A DNA stretch of 64,000 nt from assembly GCF_058153355.1 (NCBI RefSeq), contig NZ_CM177019.1; one strand, written 5' to 3'. Position numbers: made by a program. Shown here piece by piece: positions 48,001 through 51,000 of this stretch (its first letter is position 1; each line of letters begins with the position of its first letter).

Positions 48001-51000
48001 CGGACGGGTCGGAGTTATCGCGGTTGGCCATCTGGTTGCCCTGCTCTGTCCAGCTACCGGTGTAGATCCAGCAAGAAGATGCGGTTGTACCGTCATCACG
48101 CAGATGCGCAAAGCTACTCAGCAACTGACCTTTTTTCGCAATCAGCACGCCATTAGCGTCATAGAGATCTTCCAGCGCATAGCCGTTGTTCTCTTTTGCC
48201 ACTTCGTCTGACTGCGGCTCGTGCGGCTGCTTGTAGTTCCAGCTCATCTTCATCAGCGGTTCTACACCTTTACCACCTTCGGCTTTGTACAACTCGCGAA
48301 GATGATGGTAGATACCCGCCAGAATTTCGCCGTCGTTACGTGCTTCGCCTGGCGCGTCCTGACCTTTCCAGTGCCACTGCAACCAGCGACCGGAGTTAGC
48401 GATAGAACCATCTTCTTCAGCAAAGCAGGTCGAAGGCAGACGGAATACCTCTGTCTGAATAGACGCCGGATCGACATCGTTCGACTCGCCGTGGTTCTGC
48501 CAGAAAGTAGAGGTTTCAGTCACCAGCGGATCGATAACCACCATGTACTTCAGCTTGCTCAGGCAGCTCACCACTTTGTTTTTGTCCGGGAAGGACGCAA
48601 CCGGGTTAAAGCCCTGGCAGAAATAACCTGTGACTTTGCCTTCATCCATCATGTTGAAATACTTGATGACGTCGTAGGTCTGGTCCCACTTCGGCAGCCA
48701 GTCATAGCCCCAGTTGTTCTCTTTCTGCGCGGCATCGCCGTAGAAAGATTTCATCAGGCTAACGAAGAACTTCGGATAGTTGCTCCAGTAGTTCACCTGA
48801 TCAGCCAGCGTCGCTTTCGGCGTGTTCGCTTCCAGATACGACTGCAAATCAACCTGTTTTTCTGACGGCAGCGTCAGATAACCCGGCAGGCTGGTAGAGA
48901 GCAGGCCTAAGTCGGTCAGGCCCTGAATGTTAGAGTGACCACGCAATGCGTTCACGCCGCCACCAGCCATACCCATGTTACCGAGCAGCAACTGGATCAT
49001 CGCCATAGTACGGATGTTCTGCGCACCCACGGTGTGTTGGGTCCAGCCCAGCGCGTACAGGAAGGTGGTGGTGCGATCCGGCGCGCTGGTGGAGGCCAGC
49101 ACTTCACACACTTTCAGGAAGTCGGCTTTTGGTGTACCGCAGATGTTTTCAACAACGTCCGGCGTGTAGCGGGAAACGTGTGCTTTCAGCAGGTTCCACA
49201 CACAGCGCGGATGAGTCAGTGTTTCATCGCGTTTCGCATAGCCGTTTTCATCGAACTGATAGTTCCAGGACGATTTATCGTATTGCCGTTTTTCAGCGTC
49301 ATAACCGCTGAACAGGCCGTCTTCAAAAGTAAAATCATCACGCACCAGCAAGCTGGCGTTGGTGTAATGCTTAACGTATTCGGCATTGATTTTGTTGTTT
49401 TCGATCAGGTAGCGCAAAACGCCAGACAGGAACGTAATGTCCGTACCGGAACGAATAGGTGCGTAGATATCCGCCACAGAAGCGGTACGCGTAAAACGGG
49501 GATCGACAACGATCAAGGTTGCATCGTTGTTGTTTTTCGCTTCCATCGCCCAGCGAAAACCGACGGGATGCGCTTCAGCAGCGTTACCGCCCATCACCAT
49601 TACGACGTTAGCGTTTTTGATATCCACCCAGTGGTTGGTCATCGCACCGCGACCAAATGTTGGAGCAAGACTTGCTACCGTTGGTCCGTGTCAGACGCGC
49701 GCCTGGTTGTCTACCGCCAGCATCCCGAGGGAGCGGGCAAATTTCTGTGTCAGCATCCCGGTTTCGTTGCTGGCACCGGAAGCACACAGCATACCGGTAG
49801 AAAGCCAACGGTTTACCGTTACGCCCTGCTCATTCTTTTCAATAAAGTTAGCGTCACGGTCTGCCTTCATCAGCTTCGCAATGCGGGAGAATGCTTCTTC
49901 CCAGCTAATGCGCTGCCATTTGTCAGAACCTGGCGCACGATATTCCGGGTAGCGCAGACGGTTTTCGCTGTTGACGTAATCCAGCAATCCGGCCCCTTTC
50001 GGGCACAGCGCACCACGGCTTACCGGATGATCCGGGTCACCTTCAATGTGATAAATCGCTTCTCTGGCGTTTTTCGCGCCATCACCCAGGCTATACATCA
50101 ATAGCCCGCAACCTACGGAACAGTATGTACAAGTGTTACGGATCTCTTTCGCGCGTAATAATTTGTAGTTTCGCGCCTGAGCCAGTGCTTGCTTCGGGGC
50201 AAAACCCAATGCCGCGACTGTTGTTCCCGCCATACCGCCCGCGCAGATTTTAAAAAATTGTCTGCGACTGACGTCCATTGCTTTCCTCTTTTTTCAGGGG
50301 TATTACTGCGCGAGGAAACTAACAGTAAAATTCTGAATCTTTTTGCGCGAAATCAAAAAGAACAGCTGTTTGCCACAAAATAATCCGCCTGCGCAAATTG
50401 ACCTACCTCAATAGCGGTAGAAAAACGCACCACTGCCTGACAGGCCAGTTAAAAAAATGCTATAAAATTCAGCTTAATTTTTAACGGCAAGAGAGAGAAA
50501 ACAGCGAGCATGACACGACAAAAAGCAACGCTCATAGGGCTAATAGCGATCGTCCTGTGGAGCACGATGGTAGGATTGATTCGCGGTGTCAGTGAGGGGC
50601 TCGGTCCGGTCGGCGGCGCAGCTGCTATCTATTCATTAAGCGGGCTGCTGTTAATCTTCACGGTTGGATTTCCGCGTATTCGGCAGATCCCGAAAGGCTA
50701 TTTACTCGCCGGGAGTCTGTTATTCGTCAGCTATGAAATCTGTCTGGCACTTTCCTTAGGTTATGCAGCGACCCGTCATCAGGCAATTGAAGTGGGTATG
50801 GTGAACTATCTATGGCCCAGCCTGACAATTCTCTTTGCCATTCTGTTTAATGGTCAGAAAACCAACTGGCTGATTGTACCTGGATTATTATTAGCCCTGG
50901 TCGGTGTCTGCTGGGTGTTAGGCGGTGACAATGGGTTACACTATGATGAAATCATCAATAATATTACCACCAGTCCATTGAGTTATTTCCTGGCGTTCAT

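Follow-up and report, generated by a model that had tools for sequence, protein, structure and literature searches.

The predicted selenocysteine recoding site of an Escherichia coli fdnG gene and its SECIS hairpin, compared with the known elements of fdnG, fdoG and fdhF

Introduction

Bacterial SECIS elements have a stem of 6-8 bp and a conserved loop G approximately 20 nt after the UGA codon, and they are bound near the ribosome mRNA entrance by the winged-helix domains 3 and 4 of SelB (PMC4605307). The E. coli element has been described as a 17-nt upper stem-loop located 11 nt from the UGA, in which U17 is bulged and G23 and U24 lie in the apical loop, and its SelB contacts are U17 and G23 (PMC8659212). 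For the UGA of fdhF, recoding has been measured at approximately 30-40% (PMC4513850).

In this study, we analysed a stretch of 64,000 nucleotides from contig NZ_CM177019.1 (assembly GCF_058153355.1), hereafter the window, for which the closest genome is that of E. coli strain N96 (99.7% identity). An earlier reading of the sequence alone (the sequence-only reading) had proposed a selenocysteine codon in the fdnG gene of this stretch, followed by a candidate SECIS hairpin, within 49647-49693. Our analysis indicates that this is almost certainly the selenocysteine recoding site of fdnG, which encodes the catalytic subunit of E. coli formate dehydrogenase-N, a Tat-exported respiratory enzyme inducible by nitrate. 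The 48 nt counted from the UGA are identical to those of K-12 fdnG (b1474), and N96 fdnG has the same 48 nt. Positions in the element are counted with the U of the UGA as position 1.

Results

Gene Identity and the fdn Operon

The fdnG coding sequence occupies 47231-50278 on the minus strand and comprises 1015 codons and a stop, with an internal UGA predicted to be read as Sec196, and its product is the alpha subunit of formate dehydrogenase-N. Translation from 50278 to 47231 gives a frame of 1016 codons, including the terminal TAA, with one internal stop only, at codon 196. The peptide at this stop is AVDNQARV*HGPTVASLAPT, and the minus-strand RNA at the site reads GCG CGC GUC UGA CAC GGA CCA ACG GUA GCA. 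The in-frame TGA that had been noticed at complement(49691-49693), in the context NQARV-U-HGPTVA, is this single internal stop of the fdnG frame.

For the protein searches, Cys was put in place of the internal stop. The product aligned over residues 1-1015 with chain A of PDB 1KQF/1KQG (2391 bits), named 'formate dehydrogenase, nitrate-inducible, major subunit', in which X196 is the selenocysteine of the solved structure. The internal stop aligns on X196 of 1kqf_A, and the flanking protein aligns to FdnG at the Sec position; a failure of this alignment was one of the outcomes that the sequence-only reading had named as refuting it. Against TIGR01553, the NCBIfam equivalog model of the FDH-N alpha subunit, the product scored 1621.8 bits (cut-off 814.2). 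Three Pfam domains were found in FdnG, namely Molybdop_Fe4S4 (residues 44-104), Molybdopterin (107-589) and Molydop_binding (893-1008), and the Molybdopterin domain crosses residue 196 as a single stretch. FdnG also has the cluster cysteines 50, 53, 57 and 92, as well as His197 and Arg446. Residues 4-10 form the twin-arginine (Tat) sequence motif SRRQFFK (50249-50269, minus strand), and, from what is established for FdnG, the protein is probably exported by the Tat system.

Two further genes of the operon lie on the same strand. The iron-sulfur beta subunit is encoded by fdnH at 46334-47218 (minus strand; TIGR01582, 482 bits against a cut-off of 335; RefSeq annotation of N96 and K-12), and the cytochrome b gamma subunit by fdnI at 45688-46341 (minus strand; NF007558 for the FDH-N gamma subunit, 484 bits, cut-off 339). 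On the FDH-O gamma model NF007924, the fdnI product reached 268 bits, under the cut-off of 341. As FdnI scores above the cut-off for FDH-N gamma but below that for FDH-O gamma, we assigned the operon to fdn and not to fdo. The gene order yddG-fdnG-fdnH-fdnI-yddM-adhP, annotated by RefSeq in N96 and K-12, has the same synteny in the window, and the region was matched in 5425 of 5426 complete E. coli genomes, with fdnG/fdnH annotation. A candidate FNR box upstream of fdnG at 50343-50356, with 2 mismatches, was rejected as being at chance level (55 found against 43 expected in the window).

The site itself cannot separate fdnG from its paralogue fdoG, the gene of the aerobic formate dehydrogenase-O, since the two genes share the SECIS as well as the peptide surrounding Sec. 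Because the SECIS is 100% identical in fdoG, we used the whole protein, together with FdnI and synteny, to assign the gene to fdnG. The product has 6 amino-acid differences to K-12 FdnG, against only 77% identity to K-12 FdoG. In addition, the gamma subunit follows the FDH-N and not the FDH-O model, and the neighbours are yddG and yddM/adhP rather than fdhD and fdhE. We therefore consider it extremely improbable that the gene is fdoG. The naming of the gene as fdnG in the sequence-only reading is supported by the full-length match to 1kqf_A, by TIGR01553, by the operon and by synteny.

The Selenocysteine Codon and Its Predicted Read-Through

The UGA codon of Sec196 (49691-49693, minus strand), which is aligned with X196 of 1kqf_A, has C as its next base (UGA-C) and is followed by the codon of His197. 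A mechanical ORF list breaks fdnG at this point into two ORFs, one of 195 aa (49691-50278) and one of 803 aa (47231-49642, with an internal ATG start). Such a split into two pieces is what would be seen if the TGA were a genuine stop and fdnG were a pseudogene or two genes, as a result of a nonsense mutation or a sequencing error. However, the sequence 3' of the UGA behaves as coding sequence. Compared with K-12 fdnG, 56 codons of the window differ in this part, of which 50 are synonymous and 6 nonsynonymous, indicating that the part downstream of the UGA is translated and under purifying selection. In addition, no further stop occurs in the fdnG frame over the 819 codons after the UGA, whereas 36 and 48 stops interrupt the other two.

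The distribution of the codon also contradicts a genuine stop. The same TGA is found in K-12, in N96, in fdoG and in at least 120 loci across bacterial phyla, and, among the matches listed, the UGA is kept in homologues of Proteobacteria, Actinomycetota, Terriglobia and Desulfuromonadales. It is aligned with Sec196 of the crystal structure, it lies inside one Pfam domain, and it is followed by a SECIS. Because of the downstream coding selection, the domain that spans the codon and the conservation of the UGA in homologues, the readings as a pseudogene, a sequencing error or two genes are excluded for practical purposes, and we assign them a negligible probability.

Accordingly, the earlier statement that fdnG is not a pseudogene agrees with our data, given the 50 synonymous against 6 nonsynonymous changes, the lack of stops and the domain across the UGA. 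Its remark that ORF callers split the gene in two is true of the mechanical ORF list; RefSeq, in contrast, calls one CDS. The need for manual annotation that it had expressed is outdated, as RefSeq/PGAP gives fdnG as a single 3048-nt CDS in both K-12 and N96.

On the opposite strand, an antisense ORF (48935-50104, plus strand, 389 aa) overlaps the site. It matches no Pfam family and lies opposite a G+C-rich gene, and we treated it as a chance ORF.

The SECIS Element

The Rfam family SECIS_3 (RF01989) matched the minus strand at 49638-49696, a stretch of 59 nt that comprises the Val195 codon, the UGA, the hairpin and a 3' tail of 10 nt. The match scored 84.3 bits (gathering score 63; E = 1.6e-19) over model positions 1-59 of 59, and SECIS_3 was the sole Rfam family found at gathering thresholds in the whole 64-kb window. 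The site did not pass as SECIS_2 (RF01988), the fdhF type, for which it scored 28.8 bits against a gathering score of 70.

The SECIS hairpin as folded spans 49648-49688 on the minus strand, based on the MFE and centroid structures and on pair counts in 72 sequences, and the MFE hairpin starts 5 nt past the U of the UGA. Its lower stem consists of 8 bp and contains a bulged G; an internal loop of 5 nt on the 3' side comes next. The lower stem is topped by the upper stem-loop GGUAGCAAGUCUUGCUCC (49662-49679, minus strand), the putative SelB-binding minihelix, as suggested by its bases, which match those of fdhF, and by its pairing in the 72 sequences. The bulged U17 corresponds to 49677 of the window, and the loop bases G23 and U24 correspond to 49671 and 49670, respectively. 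These three bases, taken as the SelB-contact bases, stand at the same distances from the UGA as in fdhF. The fdnG element shows the arrangement described for E. coli (PMC8659212): the minihelix lies 11 nt from the UGA, U17 is bulged, and the loop contains G23/U24. The extended stem-loop that had been expected after the UGA was therefore recovered, as the 45-47 nt that follow the codon fold into one hairpin, at 49648-49688, inside the interval 49647-49693.

The lower stem occurs in two lineage-specific registers. The Rfam consensus register agrees with the GGCC-type sequences found in Pseudomonas and Burkholderia, whereas the enterobacterial lower stem forms canonical pairs only when the register is moved by one position and G47 is bulged. 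For the enterobacterial sequences we rejected the Rfam register, which yields A-C and A-G non-pairs.

Folding Energy of the Hairpin

The folding energies were compared with those of shuffled sequences. The 57-nt sequence gave -17.4 kcal/mol (z -1.06), and the 18-nt minihelix gave -4.5 kcal/mol (z -2.06). For the 45 nt after the UGA, the folding of which the sequence-only reading had named as a check, a hairpin was indeed predicted at -13.8 kcal/mol, but with a z-score of -1.70, and 11 of 200 shuffles were equally stable. The energy of the fdnG hairpin alone is thus unremarkable and not beyond chance. In the same shuffle test, the experimentally validated fdhF SECIS gave a z-score of -0.85. Because this validated element scores no better, the folding z-score cannot discriminate a real SECIS. 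For the same reason, the lack of a stable hairpin, by which the earlier reading would have judged its proposal, is a weak criterion for refuting it. Comparative evidence was sought because the energy test does not discriminate, and the real support for the SECIS comes from the covariance model and from covariation.

Cross-Species Evidence for the Helix

The degenerate 23-nt pattern GTNTGACAYGGNCCNACNGTNGC was scanned in one genome per species and gave at least 120 loci; in the window, the same pattern occurred once against 0 expected. From the loci listed we obtained 73 distinct 63-mers, of which 72 were kept in a gap-free alignment. The one left out (L054, Streptomyces) was a chance match of the pattern outside any FDH frame. 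Since the pattern itself imposed invariance on the non-wobble positions in columns 1-23, no evidence was drawn from those positions; the wobble pair counts, U24 and the sliding test described below are unaffected by this imposed invariance.

Among the matches listed, 99.4% of the cells of the upper helix (columns 18-25 with 29-35) were paired in the 72 sequences. Two pairs of this helix join wobble positions of two codons. The pair 21/33 (Val wobble with Ala wobble) was GC in 57, AU in 9 and GU in 6 of the 72 listed sequences, and the pair 24/30 (Ala wobble with Leu wobble) was AU in 52, CG in 18 and GC in 2, with 0 mismatches in both cases. Column 27, which is U24 and the wobble position of a Ser AGY or Gly GGN codon, was U in 72 of 72 listed matches. 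When the 3' partner columns were slid by 1-3, the overall pairing among these matches fell from 92% to 26-58%. A basal extension of the helix that would enclose the UGA (GUC/GAU and AC/GU, from the 57-nt MFE structure) was rejected, as its pairs 3/54 and 6/51 were only about 50% paired across phyla.

It could be argued that the hairpin is a mere by-product of the peptide HGPTVASLAPTFGRG, which is highly conserved, and that it has no function at the RNA level; the unremarkable folding z-score would agree with this. However, the constraint sits on synonymous sites, where the wobble-wobble pairs covary with zero mismatches among the matches listed. Likewise, U24 is invariant in all 72 listed sequences, though Ser AGY and Gly GGN permit other bases. 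In the 31 loci chosen by flank similarity (see below), synonymous codon identity reaches 98.8% within the element and approximately 51% in the sequence on either side. We consider an origin of the hairpin as such a by-product to be very unlikely. Taken together, the aligned sequences show that selection at the RNA level acts on the SECIS helix. Because of the SECIS_3 score, the single occurrence of the pattern against 0 expected and the covariation across 72 sites, chance is excluded as the origin of the element.

A Frozen Tail in Enterobacterales

In Enterobacterales, the constraint extends beyond the hairpin. To avoid circularity, we chose 31 loci by flank similarity only, with a lower limit of 70% identity for the sequence outside -6 to +72. 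The flanks of these loci are 72-96% identical (median 79%). Apart from one outlier, Geomesophilobacter (L019), the set contains K-12 fdoG and the loci from Enterobacterales. Over the 69 nt from -3 to +66, 25 of the 31 loci match the window exactly, and the worst locus has 4 mismatches. Synonymous codon identity over the 31 loci is 98.8% for codons -1 to +15, the part that belongs to the hairpin, and 96.8% for codons +16 to +20, which are past the hairpin. It is approximately 51% on both flanks, with sharp edges at Arg-2 and Val+22.

The constraint in Enterobacterales is thus a sharply bounded block of 69 nt, from Val-1 to Trp+21 (49628-49696), which ends about 20 nt past the hairpin. The 3' tail of this block (49628-49647, minus strand) holds the codons Gly15 to Trp21 after Sec, and its synonymous sites are frozen in Enterobacterales only; outside this order, among the matches listed, the tail wobble sites vary freely. 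This synonymous freeze 3' of the hairpin is not explained by the canonical SECIS model and is of mild interest.

A longer element in Enterobacterales could be proposed, in which +47 to +66 would pair with the 3' arm of the lower stem, once this arm is freed by the ribosome unwinding the 5' arm, and would aid recoding. The 96.8% synonymous codon identity at codons +16 to +20 with its sharp edge at Val+22 would be consistent with this proposal, as would a direct repeat of GACCAAC in columns 11-17 and 57-63. With the 5' arm covered by the ribosome, the 3' arm (UUGGUC) could become free to pair with the downstream GACCAA repeat, and in a constrained MFE structure columns 41-62 form a hairpin next to the SelB-binding stem-loop. 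However, this alternative 3' hairpin alone gave -8.2 kcal/mol with a z-score of -1.41, and 15 of 200 shuffles were as good. Across phyla, among the matches listed, 76% of its cells were paired without covariation, and its pair 48/54 was paired in 54%, while inside Enterobacterales the tail has no variation for a covariation test. A structure like it was looked for in fdhF, and none was found there. We therefore regard this pairing scheme as improbable. Similarly, it is a doubtful suggestion that the tail is a lineage-specific functional extension, possibly an alternative hairpin that tunes recoding efficiency or the refolding of the SECIS between ribosomes.

Discussion

Based on its identity with the K-12 fdnG element, the UGA of the window would be a site of SelB binding and Sec insertion. 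In the mechanism that we propose, which draws on published work on fdhF, the UGA at codon 196 would not be read as a stop, and the mRNA directly 3' of it would fold into the SECIS hairpin. The elongation factor SelB would attach to the apical minihelix of this hairpin through its C-terminal winged-helix domains. The complex of SelB, GTP and Sec-tRNA(Sec) would be tethered in this way at the ribosome mRNA entrance and presented when the UGA reaches the A site, by which time the lower stem would be unwound. Delivery of Sec at the A-site UGA would compete with termination by RF2, and recoding is expected to be intrinsically partial.

In the periplasmic FdnGHI complex, Sec196 would become a Mo ligand in the bis-MGD cofactor, beside His197 and Arg446; the ligation of Mo by Sec196 is presumably as established for 1KQF. 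Regarding the factors that this mechanism would need, tRNA genes were looked for in the whole 64-kb window, and none of any kind was found. The sel genes of E. coli lie elsewhere in the genome. Because the locus is that of a typical E. coli chromosome, selA, selB, selC (tRNA-Sec) and selD are expected, from established knowledge, to be present elsewhere in the source genome.

In terms of annotation, the gene should be given as one selenoprotein CDS of 1015 codons with a translation exception at codon 196; it should be called neither a pseudogene nor a pair of ORFs. The RefSeq pipelines in current use already annotate fdnG as one CDS.

The closest known system is fdnG of K-12. The gene of the window differs from it in 6 of 1015 residues and in 75 nucleotides; the stretch from -54 to +93 around the UGA is free of nucleotide differences. 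At the Sec196 site, nothing is functionally different between the two, and both genes have the same operon and neighbours.

The fdoG gene of K-12 has the identical 59-mer as its Rfam match, also with 84.3 bits, and the 48 nt from its UGA are identical to those of the window. Over the whole gene, fdoG and the fdnG of the window share 77% amino-acid and 74.6% nucleotide identity. The longest identical run between fdoG and fdnG has 71 nt, and its start coincides with that of the Val195 codon; the second longest has 35 nt. The context of the two operons is different, namely fdhD/fdoGHI/fdhE for fdoG, and yddG and yddM/adhP for the gene of the window.

The likeness to fdhF is more limited. Its SECIS belongs to the sister family SECIS_2, in which K-12 fdhF scores 87.1 bits and the window 28.8, and its host protein is the cytoplasmic FdhH of 715 aa. 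On the one hand, fdhF has in common with fdnG the start UGA-CAC-GG, 33 of the first 50 nt and an architecture of a lower stem with an apical minihelix. On the other hand, the lower stem and the 3' side of fdhF are unlike fdnG in sequence, and the MFE apex of fdhF has a 3-bp stem with a 4-nt loop, whereas that of fdnG has a 5-bp stem with a 3-nt GUC loop. The comparison with the SECIS elements of fdoG and fdhF, which the sequence-only reading had suggested, thus gave an identical element in the former, and 33 of 50 nt with U17, G23 and U24 in common in the latter.

In summary, there is nothing biologically new in this element, which is the ordinary, already known fdnG/fdoG SECIS of K-12, and the description of the site as well known was appropriate in view of this identity. 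Judged by its sequence, the element of the window can be equated, base for base, with the already known SECIS of E. coli K-12 fdnG and fdoG.

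Synonymous-site constraint 3' of the SECIS hairpin

In the fdnG and fdoG genes of Enterobacterales, the approximately 20 nt following the SECIS hairpin (window 49628-49647, minus strand) are frozen at synonymous sites. Codon identity among these loci reached 96.8% at codons +16 to +20, counted from the selenocysteine codon, compared with about 51% in the flanks, and the frozen stretch ends sharply at Val+22. Other lineages showed no such synonymous freeze 3' of the hairpin. The canonical SECIS hairpin does not account for these approximately 20 frozen nucleotides.

On the one hand, fdnG and its paralogue fdoG of E. 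coli K-12 showed an overall identity of 74.6%. On the other hand, the two genes share an identical run of 71 nt (window 49626-49696, minus strand), which starts exactly at the Val195 codon. Accordingly, fdnG and fdoG are indistinguishable by the recoding site.

The lower stem of the hairpin (window 49648-49690, minus strand; columns 7-16/41-49 of A1, a gap-free alignment of 72 distinct SECIS sequences) showed two registers, which are split by lineage. When the enterobacterial sequences are placed in the register of the Rfam SECIS_3 consensus, they form non-canonical A-C and A-G pairs, and canonical pairing is obtained only with the register shifted by one and a bulged G.

Upstream and antisense features

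Upstream of fdnG, the sequence TTGATTTCGCGCAA (window 50343-50356, minus strand) resembles an FNR site and has two mismatches to TTGAT-N4-ATCAA. This site plausibly fits an anaerobically induced operon, although the window contains no more matches of this quality than chance would give (55 observed against 43 expected). On the strand opposite the selenocysteine site and overlapping it, an ORF of 389 aa (window 48935-50104, plus strand) matched no Pfam family. This ORF has probably arisen by chance, since the gene on the other strand is rich in G+C.

Lineage and gene neighborhood

Among 5,426 complete E. coli genomes, that of strain N96, which originates from a Tibetan pig, was alone in showing an identity of at least 99% over the fdnG region (window 47000-50500); nearly all of the remaining genomes were 95-99% identical. 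At the fdnG locus, the source thus represents an E. coli lineage that is somewhat out of the ordinary.

Just downstream of fdnI (window 45075-45637, plus strand), we observed a complete HigB-like toxin, which matched PF05015 at 64 bits, together with an HTH antitoxin, a homologue of yddM. K-12 has kept yddM, but lacks approximately 420 nt bearing the toxin gene and has approximately 320 nt extra between fdnI and yddM. Beyond yddG, an intact gene encodes an OmpC-family porin of 366 aa (window 51651-52751, plus strand; NF007841, 496.5 bits against a cut-off of 484). The porin gene at this position is annotated as ompC in N96, whereas K-12 has only yddL, of 291 nt.
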